Shown here: positions 968 to 58,279 of the stretch, one piece after another | How positions within the stretch are numbered: the stretch's first letter is position 1 | How the letters are laid out: the number at the start of each line of letters is the position of its first letter | Notes under the pieces: model-generated | What the model was told of the DNA's origin: nothing | Database searches by the model: none | What the model saw: only the letters and a program-made list of their open reading frames with translations | IMG/VR virus record: IMGVR_UViG_3300045988_149975 | Source of the DNA: a virus | DNA: 64,000 nucleotides | Strand: one strand, 5' to 3' | Translations under genes and position numbers: made by a program

Positions 968-1103
968 ACAAGATTACCTCACCATTAATAAAATCTAAAT
1001 CATCAATGTATGTACAAAAATTTTCATATTTACTATCAATACTAATAAAACATTCTACATTCCCTTGCTTATCTCTTACTTCAATGAGTGCATCAATAAG
1101 TTC
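945..1103 (-). CDS. hypothetical protein (the tracker ORF runs to 1154; ATG at 1101-1103 with an AAGGAGAGG RBS is the likelier start)
   Basis: MKLNELIDALIEV... start is preceded by a strong RBS and overlaps the stop of the upstream methyltransferase. Confidence 0.4.
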   Translation of the reverse strand, partial: ELIDALIEVRDKQGNVECFISIDSKYENFCTYIDDLDFINGEVILYGETNEL

Positions 1104-1813
1104 ATTTAATTTCATTAGAAATCCTCTCCTTTGCAATGTTGAAATAATTTTCATCTTTTTCTATTCCAATAAACTTACGATTATTCTTTAAAGCTGCTAC
1201 ACCAGTGCTACCACTACCCATACAATTATCCAATACTACATCACCTTCACTTGTATAAGTCTTAATAAAGTATTCAAGCAATGCAACAGGTTTTTGTGTA
1301 GGATGTAATCTACATTTATCTTTATTAAAATCTAATACATCTACTGGATAGCGTTTTCCATCATTTACCGTTACTACTGATACTTGCTCTCCATAATTAC
1401 TACTACCTCTACCACTTTTGCAGGTATAAGGTTTCCCTTCTCTAAATTGTGGATGGTACGGGGGGGGAGGAATAGAATACTAAAATATTTTCATGGTTCT
1501 TTAAAGGCATTTTCTTTGCGTTTAAATGTCCTGTTCCCTGTGGTTTACGCCATATCCACTCATACTTGAGATTTTTGATATTGCTTACACCTAATACCTT
1601 ATCAAAAGGAGTCTGTGCAAAGAGTAGGATAGCACCATTATCTTTTATAATACGATTATATTCTTTCCACATTAAGTCCAAATCTATAACACTATCCCAT
1701 TTATTCCTTGTAGTACCAAAAGGCGGATCACAAAGAATTAAATTAACACACTTATCAGGTATATCTTTCATTACCTCTAAACAATCACCTAAATACAATT
1801 TTAGTTTATCCAT
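1090..1813 (-). pseudogene. DNA methyltransferase (beta-class N4/N6 type, DPPF motif), reading frame broken at a G8 homopolymer
   Basis: N-part ORF 1442..1813 carries CDPPFGTT. The C-part in another frame (about 1090..1459) reads ...KPYTCKSGRGS...HPTQKPVALLEYFIKTYTSEGDVVLDNCMGSGSTGVAALKNNRKFIGIEKDENYF, the classic AdoMet-binding region. The frame switch is at GGGGGGGG, 1460-1467 on the plus strand. Confidence 0.7.
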
Positions 1814-2373
1814 CTAACTACAGTTTCTCCTTTAAATCCCTTTTCCCAAATAAACCAAGCATAAGCAATCGCATTGGATGGGTATTTATCAAAATCACCA
1901 TTCTTTGCGCAAGAAAGCCTACCCCTTGCAACATATACATACTTTGGTGGATTTTCTTTATAAAATTCTCCACGCTCTTTGCCTTCTAAAAATTGAAGGC
2001 GTAAAAAGAACGCTACAGAGTTACCTTTAGGAATAATATCTAATGCGTGTTTCACAAATGGAAGTGCTTGTTTGTAAGGAGGATTAGAAACAATATCTCC
2101 GCCCCATTCAGTCACATCAAAGAAATTTTGTACCTTACCATATCCTCTATCATAAAGGTCAATACTTTCTACAATATAGTTAGCTTTTTCTAACTCTTTA
2201 CTGATATGCCCCTCACCACAACAACACTCTAAAATTTTCGGAGCAAATTTGTACTCTGCAAGTAGTAATTGTACTGCTTTAGGCTGTGTAGCATAGTAAT
2301 CCTCTAATTGCCTTTCTTCCCTTGAATGATTACTTGCACCAAGAGTTACATATACATTATGCTTTCCGTTCAT
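1801..2373 (-). CDS. DNA methyltransferase, probably N6-adenine (SNPPY motif)
   Basis: 190-aa ORF with ...GGDIVSNPPYKQALPFVKHA... catalytic motif IV. Confidence 0.55.
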   Translation of the reverse strand: MNGKHNVYVTLGASNHSREERQLEDYYATQPKAVQLLLAEYKFAPKILECCCGEGHISKELEKANYIVESIDLYDRGYGKVQNFFDVTEWGGDIVSNPPYKQALPFVKHALDIIPKGNSVAFFLRLQFLEGKERGEFYKENPPKYVYVARGRLSCAKNGDFDKYPSNAIAYAWFIWEKGFKGETVVRWIN

Positions 2374-2701: not shown

Positions 2702-3214
2702 TTTTTAATCTCCTCAAATATAATTTGTTTTGGTAAAATATTATGACATACATATACGCTTGAAAACGGTGGATTAAGAGATGGTTTTTGTTCTCTATAA
2801 TCTTTGAAGTATGCAACTCTCTTATTAAAGTACATAATTTCAAAGTCATTATCTTTGAACATATTAAATCTCTTTTGGCTTTCAAATAATCCTACAACAC
2901 CTACAAGCATTGCAAAGGGTTTACCAATCTCAAACAGCCTTTGTAATACCTCGCCCTTTAAAGAATAGGGAGGATTACTTATAATATAATCACAATCAGG
3001 AATAGGCTCTTTAAAGAAATCTTTACCCTCATTTATATGTGAGTGTATAACCTCATTTCCCCCCCCCTAAAATCTTTACAAAATTCGACTCTTCAGTATC
3101 AAAGGGACACCAAATTGTAGAACCAGGTTTTAGATATTTAATTAAAGGTTCAATAGCATATACAGGAGTGTAAAATTCATCATTACCGCTGCTTGCCACT
3201 TTATCCATTTTCAT
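2698..3214 (-). pseudogene. Dam-like DNA N6-adenine methyltransferase (EFYTP...ISNPPY), frame broken at a C9/G9 homopolymer
   Basis: Upstream frame reads MKMDKVASSGNDEFYTPVYAIEPLIKYLKPGSTIWCPFDTEESNFVKIL. After the run CCCCCCCCC (plus 3059-3067) the frame continues ...DCDYIISNPPYSLKGEVLQRLFEIGKPFAMLVG...SLNPPF... (tracker ORF 2698..2910). Confidence 0.7.
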
Positions 3215-4302: not shown

Positions 4303-4331
4303 ATTATAACATATTTTTACTGAAATGTCAA
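4303..4331 (-). promoter_or_regulatory. sigma-70-type promoter: TTGACA, 17 nt, TATAAT, minus strand
   Basis: Minus-strand TTGACAtttcagtaaaaatatgtTATAAT; member of the conserved promoter family in this window. Confidence 0.5.
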
Positions 4332-5461: not shown

Positions 5462-7327
5462 TCACTTTACTACCTCTGCTTCAATAGGTTTTTCTTCTGT
5501 TAAAAGTGCTTCAAGTATTCCTCCGCTGCGTGGATTACTACCCTTTACAACGGTACTTTCTATAGTTCCACCTTTTACTACCGTTTTACTTACTGTTACA
5601 GGATTACCATTTACCTCATTCTGTAATTTATGTAGTTTTTCTAAATAACCCCATGCATCTTTCATTAAATCAGAAGTTCTTTCTGTAGCTATACCACCTT
5701 GTTGAGTTTCTTGTAAATATGATTTCTGTACTCTTTCCAAAGCTAAATCGGCTAAAGAAGTCATACCATCTATTACATCATCTTGATTACGAGTATTAAA
5801 CTTACGGAAAAGATTATCGTAAGCACAGATATATCCTGCTTGATATTCAGGACAATTAGTTGCTAATACGCACCTGTCACATGATAATCTTGCTATTGCT
5901 TTAGTAGAAATTTTCTTTTGTTTTCTTAATTTTTTAATACCTGCCTTAATATTACCGTCTTTATCATATATAGGTGTAATATCATTTCTAATAAGTTCTT
6001 TTTCTACCTCATCCTTATCATAACCTGCTGTAAGCAGCGCAGGAAGAAGTTTTCCACATTCCTCTCTTGATAACTCCACCTCTGTATACTCTTTATCTGT
6101 AATATACTGCTGACGCTCTAATGCTTTACGTTCATTATCTAAAGGCTCATGTAAATTCTGTAAAGCCCTCTCCTGTCCATTTAAAGCGTTTTTAAAAGCC
6201 TCTTTTAAGAAGGCTATACATTTATCCTTTGTATTATATTTAACACCCTCTGCGCCAAAATATGCGCAAATTTCAACTAAATCTTCAAGCTGATAAGCAT
6301 TTAAGTCTTTATTATTAATAAAGTTATAAAAATCTAATAATAAAGTAGTGCCAAAATCTTTAGGTACTTGTGTATCTATACCTGCTTCATCTAACTTATC
6401 TTCCCAATCGTTCATATCAGTTGAAAACCACTCATAAGAAGGTAACTTATACATCTTTCTATCACTCCAATACTTTTTAGGGAACATAACCTGTTTTACA
6501 TACTCTTCCATTTTCTTAAAAGCAATAGCTGATGCTTTCATAAGTTCAGTTGACGCTTCTATATCCAATAATTTAGGATTAAGTTTAAGTGCTTCTAACT
6601 TTCCACGATATTCCCCATCTTTCCATTGCTCTTTTTTCAACCTTTTAAGTTTACCACCTTCAAAATAGTTTACTTCCCCGAACTGTGAACCCGTAAGCCA
6701 ACTTGTCATATCAGCAGAGAAAAAAGGATGTTTGAGTAATAATTTATTACTTCCTACACCAAAACCATGTATTTTAGCTTTATTTTTGACTGCTATCTCA
6801 AAAAGTTTATCAATATACTCAATAGGATTATCTAAACTTGCGTTCATTTCAACAGCAGAAAAACCAACATAAGGATGTTTTCTACAAAGTTTATCAAAAT
6901 CCTCAAAGCTATCATCTAAATGATATACATATATTACAGGTATACCCTCTTCTTCTAAAGGCATAAAATATTCTTTACGCCATCTTTCTACAACATCTTT
7001 GCCAACAAGACTTGATAAGTCAAGTTCTACACAAGCAAAGATTAAATCTCTATGCTTTTTAACAAAGCCTATGTATTTCTTTAGATAATCTTCCCACCAC
7101 TCTACGCTTTTATCACGATATTGAGCGTCATTTATGAAAGTATGTGCGCCACTGTCAATAAGAAATTTCATTCCTTTTTTCTTGTATAACCGTTCTTCTA
7201 TCTCCTCTTTACCTCTACGCCTTATATAGTAATAAGACAATAATAAATTTTTAGTGACTGCACTTGCTATATCATAAATTTGTTTAGGCTCAACACCTGA
7301 TAAAAATAATGTAAATTCGCTTTTCAT
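5462..7327 (-). CDS. dpdA: DpdA-like protein: TGT-family (tRNA-guanine transglycosylase fold) N-terminal domain plus a roughly 350-aa C-terminal extension; candidate 7-deazaguanine DNA transglycosylase
   Basis: FLIDSGAHTF resembles the TGT LMTDSGGFQ motif and HGFGVGSNKLL resembles the TGT nucleophile region; queC and queE homologues lie nearby. Confidence 0.5.
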   Translation of the reverse strand: MKSEFTLFLSGVEPKQIYDIASAVTKNLLLSYYYIRRRGKEEIEERLYKKKGMKFLIDSGAHTFINDAQYRDKSVEWWEDYLKKYIGFVKKHRDLIFACVELDLSSLVGKDVVERWRKEYFMPLEEEGIPVIYVYHLDDSFEDFDKLCRKHPYVGFSAVEMNASLDNPIEYIDKLFEIAVKNKAKIHGFGVGSNKLLLKHPFFSADMTSWLTGSQFGEVNYFEGGKLKRLKKEQWKDGEYRGKLEALKLNPKLLDIEASTELMKASAIAFKKMEEYVKQVMFPKKYWSDRKMYKLPSYEWFSTDMNDWEDKLDEAGIDTQVPKDFGTTLLLDFYNFINNKDLNAYQLEDLVEICAYFGAEGVKYNTKDKCIAFLKEAFKNALNGQERALQNLHEPLDNERKALERQQYITDKEYTEVELSREECGKLLPALLTAGYDKDEVEKELIRNDITPIYDKDGNIKAGIKKLRKQKKISTKAIARLSCDRCVLATNCPEYQAGYICAYDNLFRKFNTRNQDDVIDGMTSLADLALERVQKSYLQETQQGGIATERTSDLMKDAWGYLEKLHKLQNEVNGNPVTVSKTVVKGGTIESTVVKGSNPRSGGILEALLTEEKPIEAEVVK

Positions 7328-7512
7328 CTATCAAAGGAACGGTATAAAGGATTACGGCGAAGCCTATCTACTCTCGAACTTAACCTATTCCATGTTCGCT
7401 GATTCCATGTCGGTCGATTTCGGCGTAAACGCCCTGTATCATTACGTTTAATGTCAATAGACACATCATTATTACTATTGCCTAATGTATTATAATCTTT
7501 TCTACTACCCAT
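7324..7512 (-). CDS. small Arg-rich ORF (62 aa) or a non-coding GC-rich spacer between dpdA and queC
   Basis: Locally GC-rich; repeated ACATGGAAT and GGCG...CGCC hairpins; the coding assignment is doubtful. Confidence 0.2.
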   Translation of the reverse strand: MGSRKDYNTLGNSNNDVSIDIKRNDTGRLRRNRPTWNQRTWNRLSSRVDRLRRNPLYRSFDR

Positions 7513-8090
7513 TATAATTCCCCCATTTCATTTTTAGTTAAATAGAATTTATATTTCTGTGCTTCTCGCCATTTACAGTCAGTACATTGTCCACAAGGCT
7601 CTCCTACATTATTTGCAAAATTACAGGAAAAAGTATCTTCTAAATTAACATTTAAAGAGCAGCCTATACGATACACTTCATCTTTATCCTTGTCTATAAA
7701 TGGTGCAATTACTTTATATTTGTCCTCAAATTCCACTCTTAAATAAGCATTTATAGCATCCACCCACTTTTGAGTAGTATCTATAAATTCTGTATTAGCA
7801 ATTAATCCTATATAAATATTAGCGTCCTTTGGATATACCCTATTAATTAATTCTAATACAAATCTTGCATTACGGCAAGGATTAAAACCATCTTTTTCAA
7901 TTTTGGAGCGCATTTTATCAAAATAATCAAACTCTTTATTCTCCAAAATTTCACCTACATTAATAAGTTTACTATCTGTATCTTCCATAATAAAGAAAAA
8001 TGTTTTAGGATTTAAACCTTTATGTTCCATCCATGCCTTCAACACTGTACTGTCATAACCATGACTCCATAATAAAAAATTATCTCTCAA
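7512..8090 (-). CDS. queC: QueC-like PP-loop ATPase (7-cyano-7-deazaguanine synthase family) with SGG changed to SHG
   Basis: FLLWSHGYDSTV aligns with the SGGxDS PP-loop; C-terminal CGQCTDCKWRE matches the QueC Zn site CGxCxxCxxR. Confidence 0.65.
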   Translation of the reverse strand: MRDNFLLWSHGYDSTVLKAWMEHKGLNPKTFFFIMEDTDSKLINVGEILENKEFDYFDKMRSKIEKDGFNPCRNARFVLELINRVYPKDANIYIGLIANTEFIDTTQKWVDAINAYLRVEFEDKYKVIAPFIDKDKDEVYRIGCSLNVNLEDTFSCNFANNVGEPCGQCTDCKWREAQKYKFYLTKNEMGEL

Positions 8091-8295
8091 TCCAAACTAC
8101 GCCCCTTTTCTTTCTATATTTTGTAACAAGAGTATATAAACTCTTTGTACCAAATATAAATACCTTATTAAAGTTGAAAGCATTAAGAATATCTATATCG
8201 CCACCATAAAAAATTTCAAAAGGTACATTAAACTTTTTACAGAAATTATAAACTGCCACAATATTTATGTCCCCTATACTGCAAAAGATATTCAT
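8080..8295 (-). CDS. hypothetical protein
   Basis: 71-aa ORF; start sits in an A9 run that separates it from a 30-codon upstream ORF. Confidence 0.3.
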   Translation of the reverse strand: MNIFCSIGDINIVAVYNFCKKFNVPFEIFYGGDIDILNAFNFNKVFIFGTKSLYTLVTKYRKKRGVVWIER

Positions 8296-8355
8296 TTTTT
8301 TTTGCCATTTAAGTGAAATTCAAGCACATCTGATATATCCTCTTCTGTCAAAATC

Positions 8356-8748
8356 TTATTTGACAGGACAAGTGCTTGCTGCATTTAATTTTACCTCCAA
8401 GTCTGTTAAGTTATCAACAGAACTATCATCTAAATAAACGTGGGCAAATACTTTTCTTGCTCTTAAATTTTCTATCCACCATTTCATACCGTCAGGGAAC
8501 ATTTCTTTTATACGCTCCAAATCATCATTAACAGCGTCAAACTCTAATCCCAACTTTTTACAATAAGAAACTGCCTCATCTAAACTCTTACCACACCTGC
8601 AAGTCCAAAGGATTAATTCGTTCCCTGCTTCTTTTAATTCTATGAGTTTTTCTATTACACATCTACCGCTTTTATCTTCTTTAAGATAGCCAATATTCGG
8701 AAAAGCATTTTCTACGATAGTTCCATCAAAATCTACTGCTATAATCAT
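8356..8748 (-). CDS. HAD-superfamily phosphatase, T4 Pnk-phosphatase-like (DxDGT)
   Basis: MIIAVDFDGTIVEN... motif I and a C-terminal ...VYLDDSSV motif. The tracker ORF extends to 8862 through an N-terminal region that overlaps the RNR 3' end; start at internal M39. Confidence 0.5.
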   Translation of the reverse strand: MIIAVDFDGTIVENAFPNIGYLKEDKSGRCVIEKLIELKEAGNELILWTCRCGKSLDEAVSYCKKLGLEFDAVNDDLERIKEMFPDGMKWWIENLRARKVFAHVYLDDSSVDNLTDLEVKLNAASTCPVK

Positions 8749-8791
8749 TTTATACTCCTTATAAAATAGTGCGCCAAAAGGCGCACCATAA

Positions 8792-11671
8792 TTAACATTT
8801 ACTATAGCCACAATTATTACAATAAGCACACTTACCATCAGGAATAAGAGTATACTCACCACATTCAGGGCATTTCATTTTGCCATTATGAATATCATCC
8901 TTTACCTCATGAATAGCTTTCTGCGTTTCCTCTGTAAGTGCTTTTTCAAAAGTATTTTTAGCATCCTCTATAGCTGTCTTATTTTCTTGCAAGTCTTTAT
9001 AAATATCTCTAATTGCACTTGCAATACAAGAAGCGCAAGATTTAGAAATATCTTTTCTACCGCTACGCATTAAATAACTACAAGCAGGACAGTTAGCGTT
9101 GCTTAACTCATCAGCAATATCTAATGCTTTACCACCAAGCCTTAAAGCATAGCTTGTAAGTCTTGCAATAGTAGAAATATTAGCTTGACAGCCTGTTTCT
9201 GCACCTACAAAAACCTCAAAAATGTGATTATCTTTTACATTTACTGTTACATAAAAATTTCTTACACAAGCTGTATGGTAAACAAAAGTGCGCCCCCAAA
9301 GGGATTTCACTCCATTACGTTTAACAGGCTCAAGATTATCTAACTGTCTTGCTTGCATATCATCTACTGTAACAGGTTCTTTAATAATCTCAACTTTTGG
9401 CACATGATTTTTAACTTCTTTATTCTCTACATCAGCACGTTTTACACCATGGTCAGTACCAAGGATATTAATGCGTTTGCAGTTATCACGAAAAATAGTA
9501 ATACCCTTACAACCATTTGACCATGCCTGCAAATAAAGGTTAAAAATATCATCTACAGTTGCACTCTCTTTAAGATTAATAGTAGAAGAAATTGCATTAT
9601 CTACATAAGACTGCATAGTAGATTGTAAATCAACCCTATCCTTGGGGTCAATATCATAAGTATCTACAATATAAGGAAACTTTTCTTTAATCTGTTCAGC
9701 AGTAAGTTCATTGGGATTATAACCTCTAAATTTTAAAAGATTTTCCACTGCAAGCATATTAATATGGAAAGATTTACCTTCTTTTTCAAGAACATGAGTA
9801 GTTCTATCATAAGACACTTGATAGTATGGTTCTACACCACCACTTTCTCTAAAGAGCATTGAAATTGAACCGGTAGGTGCAATACTCAATAAAGTGCCAT
9901 TACGCATATTTTGAGATAAATCCTTTGCCACTCTTGAAGTAAATCTGTACTGAATATCATGTACCATACCACTTTTATCAAATTTTTCTTTGTCAAATTT
10001 ACCAAAACTACCCTTTTCTGCCCCTAATTTTGCAGAAGTGGCATAGGCAGTAGTCTGCATATTGCGCATAATAGATGCTATAAGTTCAATACTTTTTTGA
10101 CTGCCATATTTAATACCCATTGCTACAAACATATCTGCCATACCAAATATGCCTAAACCAATGCTACGCCAATCATCAATACATTTCCTATTCTTATCTA
10201 AAGGTTGAAGTTCATAACCATAATCAAGAATTTCATCTAATGCGGTTACAGCATTTTTAACTGTATCACAGAATCGCTCCATATTGAAATGCGCCGTATC
10301 AGTATAAGGATTATCTACGAAGTTATAAAGATTAATACTACCTAAATTACAAGCATTATACTCTGAACCTGCAAATTCACCACAATTCCCTGTCAAAACA
10401 CCATTGGCAATGAAGGTATGATTTTTAGGCTCATTCATACAATAAACAGTATCAACTACTTCTGCTTCTTCGATAGCTACAACGCTAATTTTAGGGCAGG
10501 CATAAGCTGTTACAATAAAATCAAGGTCATTATTAAAAACAGGATGTTTATACCAATCTAAAGTGTCACCAACTTTTAAATCTTTAGCTTCAACTCTGCC
10601 GACATCCCTCAATACCCATTTATGGTAAGGGGTACACTGAACAGTAGCACCATTAGAGAATTTAATCTTTAAAGTCTTTTGGTCATGCCCTGTTACTTTA
10701 GGAGTAACTTTGCTCCACTCATAACCATTCCAAACTTCTACCTCTTTACCTGCTAATTCCCCAATAGGTTTATACCCCTTTTTAGTAAGAATAAGGGTAT
10801 CACCAGTTACACAAGGGTTTGTAGTATCAATCCTATATTCATTAATAGGATAGCCACTCAATAAGTTACATTCTCTTACATTATCAATAAATAATGCCCC
10901 AGGCTCTCCCCAATCATACTGCGCTTCACAAAATTTCCTAAAGAAATCTCTTGCATTAATTTCTTTTTTAACCTCTTCACCATTTTCTTCATTTTTAAAG
11001 TGCAACTCAAAATTCTCATTACTAATTACACTTGTCATAAAATCATCAGTGAAACATATAGAAATGTTCGCACCCTGAATTTTATCATTATTCTGTTTAA
11101 TAGTTAAAAATTCTTCAATATCAGGATGGTCACAATTCAAGGAAATCAGAATTGCTGCCCTTCTTCCGTTATTTCCAATAACTTCACCAATTACATTATA
11201 GACATCCATGAAGGAAACTGCACCGCTTGAAGTCTTTGCAGAATTATTAACTTTAGCACCCTTTGGGCGAAGGTTACTCAAATTAATACCTGCTCCACCG
11301 CCAAAGCTAAAAATTCTTGCCATTTCCTTACCTACATCAAAAATAGATTCAATGTTATCTTTAGGTGAGGGAAGAATATAACAATTACTTGTTGTGGCTC
11401 TAAATTTTCCTTTACAACCTGCTGCATAAAGTGTTCTGCCCGCAGGTAAGAAAGTACCATCTATAATACTCTCTACCATAAAATCTTGTAATTCTTTTGT
11501 AGAAAAAATACTTGATACTCTTTTAATGAAAGCATTAAATCCTGCATCAAAACCTTCCTGTTCTACAATTTTTAACTCGTCATCGTGCATATATTTTTTC
11601 TTTATAATATTTTGCGGAATTTCATCATCCCACCATACTTTATACATATTTACATTACTAATTCTACCCAA
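8792..11671 (-). CDS. nrdJ: ribonucleotide reductase (probably class II, adenosylcobalamin-dependent, monomeric type) containing a mini-intein
   Basis: Active-site NPC-GE split as ...TTNP / CVTGDTLILT...FIANGVLTGN / CGEFAGSEYNACNLGSINL; no ATP cone; Cys-rich C-terminal zinc-ribbon tail. Confidence 0.75.
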   Translation of the reverse strand: MGRISNVNMYKVWWDDEIPQNIIKKKYMHDDELKIVEQEGFDAGFNAFIKRVSSIFSTKELQDFMVESIIDGTFLPAGRTLYAAGCKGKFRATTSNCYILPSPKDNIESIFDVGKEMARIFSFGGGAGINLSNLRPKGAKVNNSAKTSSGAVSFMDVYNVIGEVIGNNGRRAAILISLNCDHPDIEEFLTIKQNNDKIQGANISICFTDDFMTSVISNENFELHFKNEENGEEVKKEINARDFFRKFCEAQYDWGEPGALFIDNVRECNLLSGYPINEYRIDTTNPCVTGDTLILTKKGYKPIGELAGKEVEVWNGYEWSKVTPKVTGHDQKTLKIKFSNGATVQCTPYHKWVLRDVGRVEAKDLKVGDTLDWYKHPVFNNDLDFIVTAYACPKISVVAIEEAEVVDTVYCMNEPKNHTFIANGVLTGNCGEFAGSEYNACNLGSINLYNFVDNPYTDTAHFNMERFCDTVKNAVTALDEILDYGYELQPLDKNRKCIDDWRSIGLGIFGMADMFVAMGIKYGSQKSIELIASIMRNMQTTAYATSAKLGAEKGSFGKFDKEKFDKSGMVHDIQYRFTSRVAKDLSQNMRNGTLLSIAPTGSISMLFRESGGVEPYYQVSYDRTTHVLEKEGKSFHINMLAVENLLKFRGYNPNELTAEQIKEKFPYIVDTYDIDPKDRVDLQSTMQSYVDNAISSTINLKESATVDDIFNLYLQAWSNGCKGITIFRDNCKRINILGTDHGVKRADVENKEVKNHVPKVEIIKEPVTVDDMQARQLDNLEPVKRNGVKSLWGRTFVYHTACVRNFYVTVNVKDNHIFEVFVGAETGCQANISTIARLTSYALRLGGKALDIADELSNANCPACSYLMRSGRKDISKSCASCIASAIRDIYKDLQENKTAIEDAKNTFEKALTEETQKAIHEVKDDIHNGKMKCPECGEYTLIPDGKCAYCNNCGYSKC
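10385..10813 (-). mobile_element. mini-intein (about 143 aa, no endonuclease domain) inserted at the RNR catalytic Cys
   Basis: Begins CVTGDTLIL and ends ...GVLTGN, followed by +1 Cys of the C-extein CGEF; residues 287-429 of the ORF. Confidence 0.7.
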
Positions 11672-11684
11672 TTCATTCCCTCCA

Positions 11685-12281
11685 TTATAATAAAAATTCT
11701 TCTGCCATTGGCAACTTCTCTACAAAATCCATGAATACTTTATTCCACGCTTTAAGTCTATGGTTTTTACGCTGCGATACCATAGTTTTAATTTGCTGAT
11801 AATTTGTAGAAATACGAGCAGTAAGCTGATAACCCATTGGTACATTAGCAAGTACAGTATCAAAATCACATTCACCTTTATTGTATCTATCTACATATTC
11901 TTCAGCAATAGCGATAACTCTTTCATCTGTACCTTCTACACACATCTTTGCAATATCTGCTTTAAGTAACTTGTGCATTTTACTTGTGCTACTTACAATC
12001 TGCTGAAAATGATACCTTTGCCATTCTGCCCAAAAATATTGTGGCATTTCTAAATCAAACTGAACTATAATACCAGTTAAAAAATTATTATGACCGCTTC
12101 CGATAGGTGCTTTGGCTAATGCTTCTGCTCTAATAATATGTTTATTTTCATCATCCAATAATGCAATTTTCATTGTCTGTTTATCAAATTCTTTAGCATT
12201 AGGAGTTTTCAATAACATAGGATAACCCGAAGCCAAAATACTTTCCTCTAAACCATACACATTTACATTACTTATCTCCAT
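11685..12281 (-). CDS. thyX: ThyX-family flavin-dependent thymidylate-synthase-like protein (divergent: RHR replaced by RYHF)
   Basis: [30 protein letters not shown] parallels the ThyX [39 protein letters not shown] parallels LRADSHAQWEI. Confidence 0.5.
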   Translation of the reverse strand: [198 protein letters not shown]

Positions 12282-12495
12282 TTTTTACCTCCAAATACTG
12301 TCCTGTCTTAATAATATAACCTTTTAACCCACATTTTGAACATACTATATCTTTCAACCATAATTTTGTAGGTGCTACAATAATGCCACGATATAAACAT
12401 TTTAAACAGATGCCCTCAAATACTTGATGAGGAATCTTCTGTTCCCTTAATTCATCCATATCAATTACCATCTTGTTCTTCCTCAAATAATTCAT
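12268..12495 (-). CDS. zinc-ribbon protein (CLKC...CSKCG)
   Basis: 75-aa ORF with two CxxC pairs. Confidence 0.35.
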   Translation of the reverse strand: MNYLRKNKMVIDMDELREQKIPHQVFEGICLKCLYRGIIVAPTKLWLKDIVCSKCGLKGYIIKTGQYLEVKNGDK

Positions 12496-12856
12496 TTAAA
12501 ACCCTGGGAGCATAAGCACGTCCTTCAGTTTTAGCTAATGCTTTTTTAGTTTCATTGACAATCTTACCCATCCTATTAATAGAATTATTATCATATCCAT
12601 TTGCAAGCGGCGTAAGAATATCAATTAAATCTTTAGCTACCCTACGTTCTTTAGAGTATTCATTAATTAACCTACATATTTTAGTCCGCATTTTTCTATC
12701 AGTAGGATAATTAAATTCACAAAAGTGGCGAATATCACCAAAGGCTTTATCTGCTTCATTAACAGTAGTACTACAAATTGAAATATCGGATTTTGCATCC
12801 TTTAAAACTTCATAAAAATCAGAAATAATTTGACAAATCTCTTCTTTTGTTTTCAT
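12461..12856 (-). CDS. hypothetical protein
   Basis: 131-aa ORF with GAGGTGAT RBS, directly downstream of a consensus promoter. Confidence 0.45.
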   Translation of the reverse strand: MKTKEEICQIISDFYEVLKDAKSDISICSTTVNEADKAFGDIRHFCEFNYPTDRKMRTKICRLINEYSKERRVAKDLIDILTPLANGYDNNSINRMGKIVNETKKALAKTEGRAYAPRVLNELFEEEQDGN

Positions 12857-12874
12857 ATAATCACCTCAATAATG

Positions 12875-12903
12875 ATTATACCACAAAATATCTAAAATGT
12901 CAA
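12875..12903 (-). promoter_or_regulatory. sigma-70-type promoter (TTGACA, 17 nt, TATAAT with TGG extended -10)
   Basis: Minus strand TTGACAttttagatattttgtggTATAAT, then GAGGTGAT and the start codon at 12856. Confidence 0.5.
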
Positions 12904-13545
12904 TTACTTTACATTTAAAATTTTATGTAATTGTATACCTATCCTGCCCTTTATACTTCCGTCCAGTAAAGTTTTATTTATAAGTTTTACAGATTCCTCA
13001 TTGTTATTAACTGGTGAAAGAATTATTTCTGCTTTTGTAGGATATTTCTTCAAAATCTTTTTAGCAAATTCAATATCCCTCTCATTATCAATCACAAACT
13101 TAACTTCATCATAGGATTTTAATACAGCTAAATTATTATACTTATTAAGCCCTTCTACACCACTACATGGACATTTTATATCCATTACATAATTATAGCT
13201 TCTTTTATAGTCATCACTATCTATATCTATAAGTCCGCTTGTTTCAATACTTACAATATATGAAAAAGATAAAAGTTCATAAATAAGCGGGTAAATATCA
13301 TTCTGTAATAAAGGCTCTCCACCTGTTAAACAAACATATTTATTACCTAATTTACTTACCTCTAACATAATTTTATCCAAACTCATTAAACTATAATTCT
13401 TACCCTCACAAGCATATATTGAATCACAATATCTACAAAATGGCTTTGCAACACATCCATAAAACCTAATAAAAGTAGTAGGATAGCCCGTATACTTCCC
13501 CTCACCTTGTATTGATGAAAAAATTTCAACTACTTTCATTTTCAT
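12904..13545 (-). CDS. queE: 7-carboxy-7-deazaguanine synthase QueE (radical SAM)
   Basis: VEIFSSIQGEGKYTGYPTTFIRFYGC...C..C motif, and LTGGEPLL. Confidence 0.75.
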   Translation of the reverse strand: MKMKVVEIFSSIQGEGKYTGYPTTFIRFYGCVAKPFCRYCDSIYACEGKNYSLMSLDKIMLEVSKLGNKYVCLTGGEPLLQNDIYPLIYELLSFSYIVSIETSGLIDIDSDDYKRSYNYVMDIKCPCSGVEGLNKYNNLAVLKSYDEVKFVIDNERDIEFAKKILKKYPTKAEIILSPVNNNEESVKLINKTLLDGSIKGRIGIQLHKILNVK

Positions 13546-13909
13546 ACCCCCAATCTAATTTGACAACATCACCATTCTTTCTTCTTCCAAAATTTCTTGA
13601 AAAACTATCGACTAATAAAAAACGTAACTCTTCTTCAGATTTAACTTTAACTTTAAAATATTCCTTTAAATCTAACTTACTATAGTCATATTTATTTAAT
13701 GGTGTAACACGTTCTGCAATATTGCATAAACCAAACGGTAAGGAAACATACAACTTGGTAAGATACTTACTTCTATTCCTGTTTTGCCATTCATATTTAT
13801 TCTGTTTTATGCCTTCACCAACTGTACGATAGTATGGAAATTTTAAAACAAAGTTACCTATAATCAATATAAACCTACTACCACCTCTTGTAGTATAAAA
13901 CCATTTCAT
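13526..13909 (-). CDS. hypothetical protein
   Basis: 127-aa ORF; no QueD-like HGH motifs. Confidence 0.45.
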   Translation of the reverse strand: MKWFYTTRGGSRFILIIGNFVLKFPYYRTVGEGIKQNKYEWQNRNRSKYLTKLYVSLPFGLCNIAERVTPLNKYDYSKLDLKEYFKVKVKSEEELRFLLVDSFSRNFGRRKNGDVVKLDWGYENESS

Positions 13910-13933
13910 TACCCCAACTCCAAATTGGAAGCC

Positions 13934-13964
13934 TTAAAAAAGAAGCCCCCATAAGAGGGCTTTT
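13934..13964 (-). terminator. rho-independent terminator downstream of spoVS
   Basis: AAGCCCCC-loop-GGGGCTT hairpin followed by a U-run on the minus strand. Confidence 0.4.
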
Positions 13965-14244
13965 AATTTAAACTTGTAAATAATTTAATCAAAGTGCGTT
14001 CTTCACCTTCAACTACAGTAACATCAAATCCTGGGCGCACAACTATATCCCTACCATTTGAAGCAAGAAAACCTCTTGCAACAGCAACTGCTTTTACAGC
14101 TTGTGATAAACTTGCAGCACCTATACAATGTAATACTACATTTGAAGCTACTGTATTGCCCTCACCTTTAAGAGTTTTAGCAATACAGCCTGCAAGAGAT
14201 TTAACATTACTGCTACCACTTACTTTTAATACTACCTCTTTCAT
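13963..14244 (-). CDS. spoVS: SpoVS (stage V sporulation protein S) homologue
   Basis: 93 aa. Strong full-length similarity to SpoVS (VLKVS..SN..SLAGCIA...QAVKAVAVARGFLA...EGEERT.IKL). Locally higher GC than its surroundings. Confidence 0.8.
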   Translation of the reverse strand: MKEVVLKVSGSSNVKSLAGCIAKTLKGEGNTVASNVVLHCIGAASLSQAVKAVAVARGFLASNGRDIVVRPGFDVTVVEGEERTLIKLFTSLN

Positions 14245-31748: not shown

Positions 31749-33148
31749 TTATGCCCCTAATTTTTCCACAATCTCATCTTTTGTAAAACCAAGGTTTTTA
31801 TAAAGACTCCGTGGATTTTCTACATATTCGTATTTTAAAATGGTAGTCTTACCATTTTCTTCCATTGTTTCATATTTAACTGTATCTGTATTCTTGCCTG
31901 CTTTTTCTACCTCACCTGCATAAATCCAAATATAATCATCAAATAATAGATTACCCCATAAAGGCTTCCAAACTTCCTCGTTGAAATTTTCTGCCATATA
32001 ATAGTAATCCTCTTTAGAACTTAATACTTTTGGTATACCTCTCATTAATAACTCAATCCTTTCTTTAACAGAATCTAATTTTATACTTTTACGAAAATTA
32101 TAGGTATTTGCCCACTTCATCCAACCTTCTATACTGGCTACCATACCTCTTGCATAGTCCAAATCTAAATCAGCAGTCTTTAATAGACTATCCAATTTTC
32201 TAAACCTGCGTTTTATCCTTTTTGCTGTACTCTTTCTTAATAAAACACAGTTGTTAGGAAATGTCCTATAACCAAGAAAGTCTACACCTTGCGTTATAGG
32301 AAATACATTACTTTTACTTAATAACAGGTTTAACTTATCATAAGCAAATACCTTCGCTTTTTCAGCTACCTCATGTAACTCCTTCTTATCATTACCGAAA
32401 ATTATAAAATCATCACAATACCTTATATATGCACTACATTTTAAATCATACTTTATATAAGTGTCTAATTCATTCATGTATAGATTACCAAACCACTGTG
32501 AAAGATAATTTCCAATAGGTACGCCCGCCTTTCTATGACCAAATTCCTCTACATATCTTTCAAGTTTTCCACGCATTATATCAGCATCTTTACGCCCTTC
32601 AAAATTCTTCAAATAACCTATATTAGCTTCTCTTGTTGCAAGGCTATCTATTATTATATCAAGAATACTTAATAAATCTTTATCTTTAATCTTTTTACGC
32701 AATATTATTTTCAATATTTCATGGTCAATATTTACATAAAATTGTGAAATATCAAGTTTAGCACAATACTTATACTTTCTTACATATTCAGAGCATTTTA
32801 TCATTCCCTTATGCTGCCCCTTACCTTTACGACAAGCATAACTATCATATATAAATAAACTATCCCAAATAGGCTCTAACACATTCATTATAGCATGATG
32901 TACTATTCTATCAGGATAATATGGAAGTACATAAATTAAACGCAATTTAGGCTCATACATTGAATAAATCCTATAAACGGAGTTCTTATAATTTCCATCC
33001 ATTAAATCTTTTTGTAATGATAATAGGTTAGCTTCCAAATTTTCTCTTACTTTAATAACCTCTGATAAATTTCCTTTACCTTTTCCTGCTTTTAATTCAG
33101 CAATTTTAAGATTTTCAATATCAATAATTCTATTCCAAAGATTTCCAT
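31749..33148 (-). CDS. diversity-generating retroelement (DGR) reverse transcriptase
   Basis: YIRYCDDFIIFG (YxDD); PIGNYLSQWFGNLYMNELD, the DGR-specific IGxxxSQ signature; N-terminal NLWNRIIDIENLKIAELKAGKGKGN. The conserved N-terminus extends upstream of the tracker start at 33038; see findings. Confidence 0.8.
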
Positions 33149-33397
33149 ATCTTCGTATTTGAAAAACACCCTCTCTATTAAAAAGTTTAACAAATTGGCA
33201 CTCTTTATAAAGAGTGCCAAAATGCTATTTAGGTATTTAGGTAAATTGATTTTCGCCTTAACTACTAACCCCTTTACCATCCTGTAATGTGTTTCTGCTT
33301 TCGCAGAGGATAGAGATTCAGCCGAAGGATTAGCTTTATACCTATTGTATGATACCTTCGTATCACTACAGCTACGCTCGCCGTTGTTAGAGTTCAC
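33092..33397 (-). CDS. doubtful ORF overlapping the TR and the RT 5' end (no convincing Avd features)
   Basis: 101-aa ORF; its C-terminal third overlaps the conserved RT N-terminus in another frame. Confidence 0.15.
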   Translation of the reverse strand: MNSNNGERSCSDTKVSYNRYKANPSAESLSSAKAETHYRMVKGLVVKAKINLPKYLNSILALFIKSANLLNFLIERVFFKYEDMEIFGIELLILKILKLLN

Positions 33398-33481
33398 ATT
33401 CGCTGAAGCATTATTGACATTAACTGAACGAGAACTGCAACTCGAACTGTTATTCCAGTTACTGCCGAGTTTCGCCTTTAT
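33362..33481 (-). repeat. DGR template repeat (TR)
   Basis: About 120 bp, near-identical to the VR except at roughly 25 positions. At every one of those positions the TR carries A on the minus (transcribed) strand. Confidence 0.75.
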
Positions 33482-33611
33482 AACCTCTACCCTTTTAGTT
33501 GCAACTATTTATATATATAAATTGGGGGTACGAGATGGTTGTCTACATTACCTCTCCAAGTTTATATCAACTTAAACACCACATTAACTTGAATTAATGG
33601 GCTACGCCAAC

Positions 33612-34673
33612 TCAATTCCCAAGTTTATGGAGCGGCTCACCACAGCCACGCCCGCCGCTGAAAGAGTCCACAAGCGCCGAAGCACCATTGACATCAACCG
33701 AACGAGAACCGCAACCCGAACCGCCACCCCAGAGACCGCCGAGCCTCGCCCTGTACAAAGTACCATAGCTTCTACCATAAGACTGGTCATCTACACCACT
33801 ATTATATACAGAATCATTCCAACCACTTGAACCGTTTACACCAACATCACTTGCCCATTGCCATAAGAAACCACAAGCATCTTCAAGCCCATAATTACTT
33901 ATCATTCTTCTGCCCGCTGTATCAACGTGTCCACCAGTTGTATTGGCATCTGTACTACCTTGTATATTAGTACCTTCATTACTTCCTTTTGCCGCCACCT
34001 GAAACTCATATCTCCACGGCAATCTTTTCTTTATATCAGCAAGTCTTTCTACAAACTGTTCACCATGAAATTTCTTTGTAGAAGCACCATCTGCTGTTGT
34101 TCCACCATTTACACTCACAAGTTTACTTCCATTCCACGAGTTTAAGTAAATGTCCATCCATATATCTACTTCAGGAATATAAACCATTCCTTCAGGTGAA
34201 CATTTTGGGCGATGAATTAAATCCCATACTGATTGTGGTAATATATCACCTGCTACATAACCACTTAATGTATGCCCGCTTATCGTACCCACATTTGTAC
34301 ATAAACAATGGAAACCACCTATTTTTCTACTATTATCTGCATTATAACCATTAGGTACAGTAGAATTTAAAGATAATACAAAATCTAATCCATTATTTTC
34401 TACTGCATACACATAAACATCTTTACCGTTTCTATTTGCCAAACTTAAAGACAATGTTTTATCCATATCAGTAGAGTATACATTATCATTTATTCTTAAA
34501 ACCATCCCCGCAGGTATTGTTACAGTAGTCTTATTTGTAGTCATTAAACTTTTTCTATTAAAATAAGTATCAATATACTTTGCCAAAATTTCTTCACTAA
34601 AATTTTCACCATCTATTAAAGAGTTTAAATATGCTCTAATTGTTTCTACCCTTAAATTATTTAATTTATCCAT
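33612..34673 (-). CDS. DGR target protein: tail fibre / receptor-binding protein with a C-type-lectin (FGE-like) fold VR at the C-terminus
   Basis: 353 aa; C-terminal ...YRARLGGLWGGGSGCGSRSVDVNGAS... is encoded by the VR; lies in the tail-fibre gene block. Confidence 0.7.
   Translation of the reverse strand: MDKLNNLRVETIRAYLNSLIDGENFSEEILAKYIDTYFNRKSLMTTNKTTVTIPAGMVLRINDNVYSTDMDKTLSLSLANRNGKDVYVYAVENNGLDFVLSLNSTVPNGYNADNSRKIGGFHCLCTNVGTISGHTLSGYVAGDILPQSVWDLIHRPKCSPEGMVYIPEVDIWMDIYLNSWNGSKLVSVNGGTTADGASTKKFHGEQFVERLADIKKRLPWRYEFQVAAKGSNEGTNIQGSTDANTTGGHVDTAGRRMISNYGLEDACGFLWQWASDVGVNGSSGWNDSVYNSGVDDQSYGRSYGTLYRARLGGLWGGGSGCGSRSVDVNGASALVDSFSGGRGCGEPLHKLGN
33636..33755 (-). repeat. DGR variable repeat (VR) at the 3' end of the target gene
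   Basis: Matches the TR 33362-33481. All mismatches are TR-A to VR-G/C/T on the coding strand; locally GC-rich. Confidence 0.75.
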
Positions 34674-55922: not shown

Positions 55923-56258
55923 TTACGCAGTTTCAATTATTACGCCATGTGTAGGATTAAGAACTGCTGTACCCCAAATGCCATACCAAGCAATCTTAAC
56001 TTCACGCCCAAAATCTTCAGTATCATCTGTACGAATTTCAGGGGCTAAAGATTCTGCAAGTGCATAATAATCTTCGCCAAAGATTACTGCCTGATATACG
56101 TTAGCACTGGAAGCACCTGCGGCTTTAAGTTCTGCTACATAGCCTAAATCGCTTTCAGCAGCAGCACCATTAGGCATAATGGTTGTTTCAATAAAACGAA
56201 CATCGTCAATTCTACCGATTTCCAATCTGTTACTATGGGCGGTAAATACCCATTTCAC
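55923..56258 (-). CDS. major capsid protein (HK97 fold), 3' exon
   Basis: ...AVIFGEDYYALAESLAPEIRT...KIAWYGIWGTAVLNPTHGVIIETA matches the HK97-family C-terminus. The tracker M is GTG; the exon probably begins 1-2 nt inside. Confidence 0.65.
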   Translation of the reverse strand: MKWVFTAHSNRLEIGRIDDVRFIETTIMPNGAAAESDLGYVAELKAAGASSANVYQAVIFGEDYYALAESLAPEIRTDDTEDFGREVKIAWYGIWGTAVLNPTHGVIIETA

Positions 56259-56358
56259 TTACTTTATGTAAGCGGGGGCGTACTTCTATGAGTGTCTTTA
56301 CACTCGACTGCCCCTCTTATGTTCACACATAAGGTCTGACTATCTCTTTACCCCTTTC

Positions 56359-57246
56359 TTATGTTCGAGGTATCTCGTGTATAGTCGATAGACTTTTTTC
56401 AGATAATTTATAACTCATTGATTTTGGTATAAATTCTTTTATGTAGTCGCAAAACTTTGTAAAACTTTTTGAAGGTATTCTTATCATCGGATAACCACAT
56501 TCAAGCTGAACATAGGTTTCAATTTTAATAATTTCATTTAAAGAATTGCTCAATAACTGACACTCCTCAATAGTAAAACAACAAGTTGCTATCTTACCCC
56601 AATTTCCTTTACCTTTACTACCATCATCTGCATACCATATAGCGATTGATAAAGGATTGAGCATTTCCTTAATGTTATTAGGAATAATCTTTGTTTTACC
56701 TTTATAGAACATTTCCCTTAACTGTTTTATATCTCCAAAGGCTTTTGTCCTTTTCCTAACCGATTGATAACCTTCTTTAGTTTTTCTATAATAACTACTG
56801 CTTATATCATTGCCAAAGAAACTTGCCTTATAGTTTAAGTAATCTTCTTGTTTAAGCGAATGACTTAAATAAAGTACCCTTCCATCAAGATAACCGTCAC
56901 CTAAAATGCTACCAATTACAACACTTCTTTGATTATCTGTTAAGTGCTTATAATCACTTTGTACAGCAGATATGCCATAATGTGTTAGCCATTTTGTAAC
57001 TGTACTATTCTTTACATTAAACTTTTCGCCGACATCTTTCTTCCTACCACCATTTTGAAAAACCTCTAATATCTCCTCTTTCGGTGGTATATAAGCAAAA
57101 TGTTCAAAAGTTCCTAACTTATACTCTTTAACAAGTCTTTTTATAACTTTTAAACTTACACTAAAATGTTTTGCAACTAATTTCTGACTTTTTAAGTCAT
57201 TATATACTTTTTGTAAATCTTCTTTTGCAATATAAATCTTTTTCAT
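56359..57246 (-). CDS. LAGLIDADG homing endonuclease (two-motif, intron-encoded), N-terminal HTH
   Basis: VIGSILGDGYL and SIAIWYADDGSKG motifs; its stop lies between P8 and P7' of the downstream intron core. Confidence 0.8.
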   Translation of the reverse strand: MKKIYIAKEDLQKVYNDLKSQKLVAKHFSVSLKVIKRLVKEYKLGTFEHFAYIPPKEEILEVFQNGGRKKDVGEKFNVKNSTVTKWLTHYGISAVQSDYKHLTDNQRSVVIGSILGDGYLDGRVLYLSHSLKQEDYLNYKASFFGNDISSSYYRKTKEGYQSVRKRTKAFGDIKQLREMFYKGKTKIIPNNIKEMLNPLSIAIWYADDGSKGKGNWGKIATCCFTIEECQLLSNSLNEIIKIETYVQLECGYPMIRIPSKSFTKFCDYIKEFIPKSMSYKLSEKSLSTIHEIPRT

Positions 57247-57614
57247 TATAAATTACCTTCCTTTAGTACGGTATTACCCCTCTGGGGTTCACTTTCTATA
57301 TACATAGTATTATAGGCTTTTTAAAGCCAACCGTTTAGCGAGATGCTTTGTACTTGTTTTTATTCAAGCACAACGGCAAAATCTACCGTTAAATAACTGT
57401 TCAGGCGCACCATAGTTGCTCGCATTACAGCACTATTACTTTCACCCACTATGGTAAGGGTTACTGACTAATATCTCTATTAGCGGGGCAACTGCTTCTC
57501 TAAAGTGTCTTTACACTTGAGTCACCCTCTTATGGTTTCCCATAAGGTTAGACTATCTCATCCCCCGATTTTTTACATCGGGGGCTTCGTCCATAGTCGT
57601 TGCAAGGGTATCAA

Positions 57615-58145: not shown

Positions 58146-58279
58146 TTACGTTACTCCTCTCTTTATGTTTAATCTTAACCTTCTCACAGGATTGGCATGA
58201 CTTTTCAGTTTTAGCTTTCCCTGTTTTCACGAAGTTTAATCGAGTACATTACTGTACAAGTGGACTAATGCTAATGGCT

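Follow-up and report, generated by a model that had tools for sequence, protein, structure and literature searches.

A trimmed phage gene cluster encoding DpdA-like, QueC-like and QueE proteins, probably for 7-deazaguanine modification of DNA, in a lineage that appears to have lost queD

Introduction

DNA marks of the 7-deazaguanine type are a major strategy by which phages withstand restriction, and eight such derivatives are known. The phages described as 'group 2', which encode DpdA and a preQ0 pathway and no amidotransferase, are predicted to carry dPreQ0 or dADG (Hutinet et al. 2019, PMC6884629), and Bacillus phage BCD7 is listed as a phage with DpdA and the full preQ0 pathway (Hutinet et al. 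2019, PMC6884629 Supplementary Data 1). For phages 9g and CAjan, DpdA1 has been shown experimentally to be a preQ0 DNA insertase. In this work we analysed a stretch of viral DNA of 64,000 nucleotides (IMG/VR virus record IMGVR_UViG_3300045988_149975), referred to throughout as the window, in which a DpdA-like protein, a short QueC-like protein and QueE are encoded. We consider it likely that these genes form a working, trimmed module with which the phage replaces some guanines in its own DNA by a 7-deazaguanine base. The module is of the known type 'DpdA plus preQ0 pathway, no amidotransferase', and BCD7 is the nearest catalogued phage. What is noteworthy about it is modest, namely the apparent loss of queD with queE retained, a QueC of a minimal subfamily whose loop has the rare form SHG, and a conserved, unexplained module in DpdA.

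Results

The three genes lie on the minus strand, within a nucleotide-metabolism block at 4–14 kb of the window (Table 1). A sequence-only reading made earlier had placed them at these positions and described them as encoding a TGT-fold protein with a long C-terminal extension, a QueC with SHGYDS in its loop and an intact zinc site, and a radical-SAM QueE, together the gene content of phage 7-deazaguanine DNA modification. Positions and strand were confirmed, and the family assignments given below, the conservation of the cluster among relatives and the catalogued BCD7 all agree with that view. For comparison we used contigs of relatives, which are designated by L-numbers (L002, L004, L005, L006, L022–L026 and L040).

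The 621-aa protein groups, on its sequence matches, with phage DpdAs and not with tRNA TGTs. It matched phrog_887 ('queuine tRNA-ribosyltransferase') at 1.4e-65, and tblastn aligned it over its full length with gp21 of BCD7 (33 % identity, 97 % coverage) and over residues 49–259 with the DpdAs of phage 9g and other phages; the DpdAs matched by tblastn also included those of CAjan-like phages, mycobacteriophages and BRock. Neither the Pfam nor the NCBIfam TGT models matched it at E ≤ 0.01, nor did the TGT models of PADLOC; the grouping with tRNA-modifying TGTs that the sequence-only reading had named as speaking against it was thus not what we found. An AlphaFold model built on 24 family sequences was confident over residues 1–390, with a predicted local distance difference test score (pLDDT) of ~90 over residues 1–290. 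Using Foldseek against the PDB, its best match was Zymomonas mobilis TGT (9e-6, probability 1.0), with bacterial DpdA (7ui4) at 4.6e-4; other TIM barrels matched at ~1e-3, so that the fold by itself is not specific, and the family sequence profile returned only noise from the PDB. Homologues of this long DpdA fall into 24 clusters with 34–100 % identity over the aligned region, and in the alignment of the 24 sequences D58 (in DSG), D103, H136, G155, F189 and D206 are invariant, whilst the aromatic stacking position four residues after D58 is H, F or Y (H62 in the window protein). In bacterial DpdA the acid/base is D95 and the nucleophile D256; D130 and H181 recognize the base, with F99 and L236 stacking against it (PMC10164549). 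The order and spacing of the invariant residues fit D95/D130/H181/L236/D256 of that enzyme, and likewise Z. mobilis TGT, and we infer that they occupy the corresponding catalytic and base-binding positions. The window protein has no zinc subdomain of the tRNA-TGT type, as no cysteine occurs between residues 206 and 300.

The C-terminal extension of ~330 aa is conserved across 23 homologues, BCD7 included; among the clusters of long-DpdA homologues the one exception is the most remote, whose 455-aa protein aligned with a third of the query. It comprises a confidently modelled helical domain (residues ~298–390), a less confident region with the invariant motif C483-x2-C486-x5-C492-x8-C501 (nt 5825..5881), and two long helices, after which comes a conserved tail, N598-P599..GGIL. 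Over its last ~160 aa (nt 5465..5938) the extension shows homology to the C-terminal portion of actinophage 'small terminase' proteins (phrog_6902 at 1.3e-7, phrog_16015 at 1e-4); residues 464–621 matched Tsukamurella phage TIN2 Orf1, again in its C-terminal part, at 8e-11 by BLASTP, and tblastn matched the 'TerS' proteins of TIN2/3/4, GMA7 and GTE7 as well as the DpdA of Streptomyces phage BRock, to which the same C-terminal module is fused. The TerS label on the TIN2-type proteins is a database annotation. When the extension was modelled alone (pLDDT 65.7), Foldseek returned nothing below E = 0.19 from the PDB and hence no relative of solved structure, and a search of BFVD gave another long DpdA and a weak, uninformative match to the 'TerS' of Gordonia phage Jumbo (E = 0.04). 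We rejected the idea that DpdA itself is the small terminase, as dpdA lies ~55 kb from terL, a separate 251-aa open reading frame (ORF) precedes terL in relatives, and BCD7 simply has no annotated TerS. A small-terminase fold for the extension was also set aside, there being no structural match to a solved TerS. Our guess is that the extension is most likely a zinc-binding module that binds DNA or a partner, and not a domain that changes the chemistry; a coupling to packaging is a possibility only.

QueE, a radical S-adenosylmethionine (SAM) enzyme, was matched by TIGR04349 at 2.6e-52 over model positions 1–203 of 210 (177.6 bits, below the 300-bit equivalog cut-off), by TIGR03963 at 2.9e-45, likewise below the curated cut-off, and by phrog_2076 at 2.1e-36. 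It is 49 % identical to the QueE of BCD7. Its cluster motif reads C31-x5-C37-x2-C40 (nt 13426..13455), the usual form being Cx3Cx2C; the same spacing occurs in L002, and the SAM motif GGEPL is present.

The absence of queD and folE, already remarked upon in the sequence-only reading, held up under a wider search. With three QueD proteins and one FolE as queries, tblastn of the window gave nothing better than E = 0.13, and PHROG scans of all other minus-strand ORFs showed no QueD, FolE, QueF, Gat or ArcS, nor any homologue of DpdB or DpdC. The search was extended to ~24 kb of flanking DNA from near-identical contigs, and by tblastn neither QueD nor FolE was found in ~20 kb upstream of terL (on relatives' contigs, two of which encode the window's own TerL and four of which carry one and the same upstream protein) or, past the window start, in a further 4.5 kb. 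In a scan of all of IMG/VR for QueD, contigs of queD-positive relatives were among the best 80 loci and the 91-kb and 52-kb contigs of this phage were not.

Across ~25 related contigs the gene order is conserved, running spoVS, terminator, queD where it is kept, in some cases a 127-aa gene, queE, a set of nucleotide-metabolism genes (ThyX or ThyX-like, ribonucleotide reductase, HAD phosphatase), the queC-like gene, a small basic ORF, dpdA and an RNA ligase. A QueD of 117–127 aa with CxxxHGH stands at the junction after spoVS in L002, L004 and fourteen further relatives. In the window, the 53 bp between spoVS and the next gene contain nothing but a ribosome-binding site and the terminator hairpin of spoVS (13943..13962), and the same junction is seen in L005, L006, L022 and L023, giving five assemblies with the window. 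To judge from this synteny, the window lineage has lost queD from its conserved position. In L024 and L025 (DpdA 59 % identical) queD is absent as well and the QueE homologue (L024:6391-6975) is without the three-cysteine motif and GGEP, with QueC (SGGYDS and YPDC intact) and DpdA kept; among family members, folE is found within 10 kb of dpdA in BCD7 only. The upstream steps thus appear to have been shed repeatedly in the family, with the queC-like gene and dpdA always kept. As QueE needs 6-carboxy-tetrahydropterin (CPH4) and is maintained in a lineage in which queD has gone, CPH4 would have to be drawn from the host, which is in line with the scavenging of a host precursor that the sequence-only reading had suggested.

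When 1.84 billion cluster representatives were searched with the 192-aa QueC-like protein, only 431 matched at E ≤ 0.001, 21 of them at E ≤ 1e-10; the closest dozen all measured 184–215 aa and are here called the short family. Pfam QueC (PF06508) matched the C-terminal half only, at 5.2e-15, and the score of 56 bits against a cut-off of 22 marks the protein as a member of the superfamily. When the family profile was compared with the PDB, Bacillus subtilis QueC (3bl5) was found at 3.5e-15 and Cap9 (9nto) at 6e-11. The best full-length profile match was to the 190-position 'QueC' model of PADLOC (3.7e-22), which we take to represent Cap9, the QueC of type IV systems of cyclic oligonucleotide-based antiphage signalling (CBASS). 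As such, we file the protein as a QueC-superfamily ATP pyrophosphatase of a short, apparently phage-restricted subfamily, and regard it as no more than a candidate preQ0 synthase.

The pyrophosphate-binding loop (PP-loop) of this protein reads SHGYDS (aa 9–14, nt 8049..8066) and departs from strict SGGxDS by a one-residue change of G to H at loop position 2. It keeps S9, G11, D13 and S14 and therefore fits SxGxDS, the pyrophosphate-binding consensus of QueC-family enzymes (doi 10.1101/2025.04.06.647259). The signatures of canonical QueC in PF06508 are YxQxHxxE, VPxRN, YPDC, K165 and a C(x)8CxxCxxC zinc motif (PMC13329287, 2026), and in Escherichia coli QueC the exchanges Y35A, R99A and Y131A abolish activity, Y131F being partly active (PMC13329287). 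In the window protein the zinc site reads C156-x9-C166-x2-C169-x2-C172 (nt 7575..7625, CGQCTDC), all four cysteines being invariant in the family and the first spacer being 9 instead of 8 residues; VPxRN reads NPCRN, with R73-N74 invariant, and K136 is invariant within PF(x)4K. Members of the short family with an SGG loop lack YxQxHxxE just as the window protein does. Among the PP-loops of the best 150 representatives, 128 of which were readable, 124 read SGG and two SSG (one of these in the short family), and SHG was confined to the window cluster. All five queD-less assemblies and a 91 %-identical cluster keep SHGYDS (variants 85–96 % identical), and this conservation argues that the loop is neither a sequencing error nor part of a drifting pseudogene. 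A compensatory 'histidine swap' between the PP-loop and a His that many short QueCs have at the end of strand 2 was considered and rejected, since several SGG members also lack that His. Nor is SHG strictly tied to the loss of queD, as L024 and L025 are without queD and have SGGYDS.

In order to gauge selection on the module, we determined the ratio of non-synonymous to synonymous substitution rates (dN/dS) between the window and L005, from the same queD-less clade, at a dS of ~0.8. The ratio was 0.042 for DpdA, 0.090 for the QueC-like protein, 0.120 for QueE and 0.17 for the small ORF between the queC-like gene and dpdA. Such strong purifying selection on the first three argues that the module works; the small ORF, too, evolves under purifying selection.

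Two small genes accompany the cluster. That for a basic 62-aa protein is translationally coupled, overlapping the queC-like stop and the dpdA start. An ORF of this kind (60–77 aa) stands between the queC-like gene and dpdA in every lineage of the family (L002, L004, L024, L026 and L040), and the 62-aa protein itself matched no family. The motif NPLY is found in the window clade, L002 and L004 and NPYY in L024, and the small ORF of L004 ends in GGIL, resembling the NP..GGIL tail of DpdA. The N-terminus varies by lineage (MG, MS, MR or MF/MI). The second gene, for a 127-aa protein, overlaps the start of queE by 20 nt. Its product had no match in Pfam or the PDB, and its alignment shows invariant residues in protein-kinase-like order (VxK23, E40, D101-x4-N106 and D119-W-G). 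We rejected it as part of the pathway or substitute for QueD, because relatives carry it alongside QueD and because T4-like, jumbo and other unrelated phages encode homologues. The relatives L026–L040 lack it and retain QueD, QueE, QueC and DpdA, and it probably stands outside the pathway.

The window is ~32 % GC with a strongly negative GC skew, and nearly every gene is on the minus strand. PHROG scans of all minus-strand ORFs placed packaging, capsid and tail genes at 36–64 kb, the tail genes being of siphovirus type, and a replication block at 14–30 kb, with the lysis gene at 29–30 kb. Megablast found nothing matching the region among 50,697 phage records, and by this measure the phage has no close cultured relative. 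The same phage is present in public metagenomes, where IMG/VR contigs of 51.7 and 91.4 kb encode DpdAs 100 % and 99 % identical, and the identical DpdA protein represents 175 member sequences in public data. The SpoVS homologue directly upstream of the cluster is kept from the window phage to BCD7, and its conservation suggests a host among the spore-forming Bacillota.

Promoters that match the sigma-70 consensus perfectly (12/12) and have an extended −10 TG were seen at two sites, the first immediately downstream of queE and the second downstream of the RNA ligase gene. They bracket a long operon that includes the queC-like gene and dpdA, and transcription of the genes as far as dpdA and the RNA ligase could start from the first. 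Just upstream of the queC-like gene, a conserved gene of ~100 aa is broken by a +2 frameshift with an A9 run near 8290; the run is A7 with an intact ORF in the same phage in IMG/VR, and A6 with a broken ORF in L006. A sequencing error in the homopolymer or slippage-prone variation would account for the frameshift. Downstream of the RNA ligase are several DNA methyltransferase genes, of which one is in two ORFs; relatives have a C5 methylase in addition, and their early region encodes ArdA. Together the methyltransferases and the relatives' ArdA suggest heavy investment in anti-restriction by these phages.

Mobile and diversifying elements are also present. A diversity-generating retroelement comprises a reverse transcriptase (phrog_1423 at 4e-103) and template and variable repeats of 114 nt each, with all of their 26 mismatches at adenines of the template; the 3' end of a tail protein gene contains the variable repeat. 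The major capsid gene is seemingly split, its N-terminal and C-terminal parts both matching phrog_1357 with HNH and LAGLIDADG endonuclease ORFs between them, which suggests one or more introns with homing endonucleases; relatives show other endonuclease combinations in this region. Inteins were called, from Pfam Intein_splicing and LAGLIDADG matches in identical or related proteins, in TerL (803 aa) and ribonucleotide reductase (959 aa). In L006 the RNA ligase adjoining dpdA also has an intein, and the position of the window's 198-aa ThyX-like gene is taken in L004 by a bona fide ThyX that contains an intein.

Table 1. Positions of the features discussed, numbered along the window
Feature	Position	Strand	Basis or remark
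DpdA-like protein, 621 aa, ATG start	5462..7327	-	ORF
DpdA N-terminal TGT-fold (TIM-barrel) domain, aa 1–290	6458..7327	-	phrog_887, tblastn, AlphaFold/Foldseek
DpdA C-terminal extension, aa 291–621 and stop (~330 aa)	5462..6457	-	family conservation
Small basic 62-aa protein gene	7324..7512	-	translationally coupled
QueC-like ATP pyrophosphatase, 192 aa, TTG start	7512..8090	-	Pfam QueC, PADLOC, 3bl5 profile
Frameshifted gene of ~100 aa	8083..8384		conserved
Ribonucleotide reductase with intein	8792..11671
Sigma-70 promoter, downstream of queE	12903..12875	-	12/12 consensus
QueE, 7-carboxy-7-deazaguanine synthase, radical SAM, 213 aa	12904..13545	-	TIGR04349, TIGR03963, phrog_2076
127-aa gene	13526..13909	-	phrog_4301, function unknown
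queD-less junction	13910..13962	-	synteny with L002, L004
SpoVS homologue	13963..14244	-	Pfam 8e-24
Sigma-70 promoter, downstream of RNA ligase	4331..4303	-	12/12 consensus
DNA methyltransferase genes	1102..2373 and 3053..3214
Methyltransferase gene in two ORFs	1102..1281 and 1442..1813
Diversity-generating retroelement	31749..34673
Retroelement reverse transcriptase	31749..33038	-	phrog_1423
Template repeat	33363..33476
Variable repeat	33637..33750
Tail protein gene with variable repeat	33612..34673	-
Major capsid gene, seemingly split	55923..58972
Capsid part, N-terminal	58280..58972		phrog_1357
Capsid part, C-terminal	55923..56258		phrog_1357
HNH endonuclease ORF	57615..58145
LAGLIDADG endonuclease ORF	56359..57246
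Portal (packaging block)	59787..61385		PHROG scan
TerL with intein (packaging block)	61387..63798		PHROG scan

Discussion

The pathway that we propose for this phage would begin in the host, to which the first step is assigned because the phage has neither folE nor queD: host GTP cyclohydrolase I (FolE) and host QueD would supply CPH4. Phage QueE, recognizable by family, would turn CPH4 into 7-carboxy-7-deazaguanine (CDG). The short QueC-like protein, again placed by family, would activate the carboxylate of CDG with ATP, amidate it with ammonia to ADG and probably dehydrate ADG to preQ0; preQ0 and ADG cannot be told apart as the end product from sequence, because the short family lacks YxQxHxxE and scores best against a defence-type QueC profile. 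Finally, the TGT-fold domain of DpdA would exchange guanine in double-stranded phage DNA for the 7-deazaguanine base by the double displacement of the TGT/DpdA enzymes, with D206 as the putative nucleophile and D58 as the putative general acid/base. The expected outcome would be dPreQ0 or dADG in virion DNA and protection from host restriction enzymes. The sequence-only reading had offered dPreQ0, dG+ or dADG; the first and last of these stay, whilst dG+, like dPreQ1, is unlikely because the window encodes no amidotransferase (Gat-QueC, ArcS, QueF-L) and no QueF.

Several points weigh against a working module of this kind. The QueC-like protein scores far below the NCBIfam QueC equivalog TIGR00364 (47.8 bits against a cut-off of 150.3) and reaches 23.9 bits for NF008317, where the cut-off is 378. 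YxQxHxxE is absent, the aligned residues being M35, D37, D39 and L42 (profile alignment to 2pg3 and 3bl5), and YPDC reads FIDT, with D104 invariant. The mapping of the catalytic residues of DpdA follows motif order and not a structural superposition. By our estimate, the search for queD and folE covered ~88 of the 91 kb of the phage genome, and that for folE used a single query. The host search by GTDB genome scans gave only distant matches to metagenome-assembled genomes, and we found no biochemical or mass-spectrometry data for this phage or for others with a phrog_887-type DpdA.

These departures of the QueC-like protein bear on a variant chemistry, in which the enzyme would stop at ADG, as proposed for QueC* of Campylobacter phages, or would couple adenylated CDG to some other amine, leaving in the DNA dADG, dCDG or, beyond the eight known marks, a 7-deazaguanine amide. 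We regard this as unlikely. In its favour, the missing YxQxHxxE and altered YPDC extend across the whole short family, the best full-length profile is of the defence type with Cap9 close behind in the PDB, and Cap9 performs the same adenylation chemistry with a different amine (doi 10.1101/2025.04.06.647259). Furthermore, SHG occurs in one of 128 readable PP-loops among the best 150 representatives, and there are phages with a standard gene set that are known to carry dADG (PMC8306585). However, Cap9 itself retains a YxQ(x)5E variant, so that loss of the motif does not define the conjugating enzymes (PMC13329287); the window protein retains the zinc site along with R-N, D104 and K136; no further member of the cluster resembles a new tailoring enzyme; and dADG would still be a known mark. 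The sequence-only reading had also argued for variant chemistry, from the altered loop and the DpdA extension, and this argument is weak because it rests on the wrong features. The loop is one residue off SGGYDS and still SxGxDS, and the extension is no mark of altered chemistry, being common to BCD7, with its complete canonical pathway, and to relatives that have queD and whose QueC carries the canonical SGGYDS. What leaves room for a different product, to go by the sequences, is the missing YxQxHxxE, which that reading had not seen.

A broader idea joins two of these threads and strikes us as improbable: the minimal QueC would be an ADG synthase or an amine-conjugating enzyme, giving a mark unlike dPreQ0, and/or the Cys4 module would tether DpdA to the packaging machinery. 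If the former were true, abundant Bacillota phages would carry a DNA mark other than dPreQ0; if the latter were true, DNA modification would be coupled to packaging.

Decay of the module, with queD lost, the PP-loop mutated, the remaining genes drifting as remnants and the DNA unmodified, is in our judgement very unlikely. In its favour, queD is lost, the L024/L025 lineage with neither queD nor the Fe-S cysteine motif of QueE demonstrates that upstream erosion occurs in the family, and the gene just upstream of the queC-like gene is frameshifted in the window. Against this stand the dN/dS values of 0.04–0.12 for the three genes within the queD-less clade at a dS of ~0.8, ORFs that are intact in all five assemblies, the conservation of SHGYDS across variants that are 85–96 % identical, and the 175 public member sequences represented by the identical DpdA.

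An RNA or protein target, be it a boosted or altered host queuosine-tRNA or a deazaguanylated protein as made by Cap9/Cap10 of type IV CBASS (for which the small basic protein could be the candidate), is the least probable of all: the translational coupling of the queC-like gene, a small ORF starting MG... and the TGT-like gene, the likeness of the QueC-like protein to Cap9 in size and profile score, and the conjugation of CdnD at Gly2 (doi 10.1101/2025.04.06.647259) would favour it, but the N-terminal glycine was rejected as acceptor because it is not conserved, the TGT-like protein matches phage DNA transglycosylases and neither TGT/Cap10 nor the PADLOC TGT models, the window holds no match to a CD-NTase, a Qat partner or another defence system, and the family pattern of queD and queE (with folE in BCD7) is one of base biosynthesis for DNA.

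Modification of the phage's own DNA by a trimmed module thus remains our preferred explanation. It does not overturn current understanding, and would help to predict more precisely which mark a given phage bears. With folE missing from the cluster family-wide, queD from two lineages and queE eroded in one, the relatives form a natural deletion series for reliance on host queuosine metabolism. The short QueC family breaks a motif essential in E. coli and offers a test case for the role of that motif and for the capacity of minimal, Cap9-like QueCs to make preQ0. The C-terminal module of the long DpdAs is conserved from Bacillus to Streptomyces phages.

The locus can be set beside several known systems. 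TIN2 Orf1 and its counterparts in GTE7 and GMA7 (phrog_6902) have the Cys-rich motif, long helices and tail in common with residues 464–621 of the window DpdA; TIN2 Orf1 shows no relationship to TGT or DpdA in its N-terminal 250 aa, and its gene, unlike dpdA, lies directly upstream of terL. Bacterial DpdA of Salmonella Montevideo (7ui4), from the Dpd restriction-modification system, has a TGT-like TIM barrel with the same order of invariant residues; it needs the ATPase DpdB (PMC10164549), and sequence profiles fail to connect it with the window DpdA. Cap9 (9nto) has 191 aa against 192 and shares the truncated QueC fold, PP-loop, R-N, PF(x)4K and Cys4 site with the QueC-like protein. It is encoded, together with a CD-NTase and Cap10, in a defence operon of bacteria and conjugates CDG to a protein N-terminus (doi 10.1101/2025.04.06.647259), whereas the window protein is encoded in a phage cluster for base biosynthesis and DNA insertion; additionally, Cap9 retains Y/FxQ(x)5E (PMC13329287), which the window protein lacks.

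The DpdA of 9g aligned with the window protein over residues 49–259 by tblastn (~25 % identity, E = 6e-9), with the DSG aspartate and the downstream aspartate in common and nothing aligning to the ~330-aa extension, and 9g and CAjan possess the full FolE-QueD-QueE-(Gat-)QueC set (PMC10516641), unlike the window phage. BCD7 is a myovirus with a sheath gene, whereas the window phage has tail genes of siphovirus type, and its cluster consists of gp21 DpdA, gp22 FolE, gp25 QueC, gp27 QueE and gp28 QueD, so that it encodes both folE (next to dpdA) and queD where the window phage has neither. Its QueC, of 215 aa with SGGFDS and a YGQ...E motif, is 24.5 % identical to the 192-aa SHG protein. Nevertheless, the two phages share the same long DpdA architecture with its Cys4 module, spoVS upstream of the cluster and small basic ORFs between queC and dpdA.

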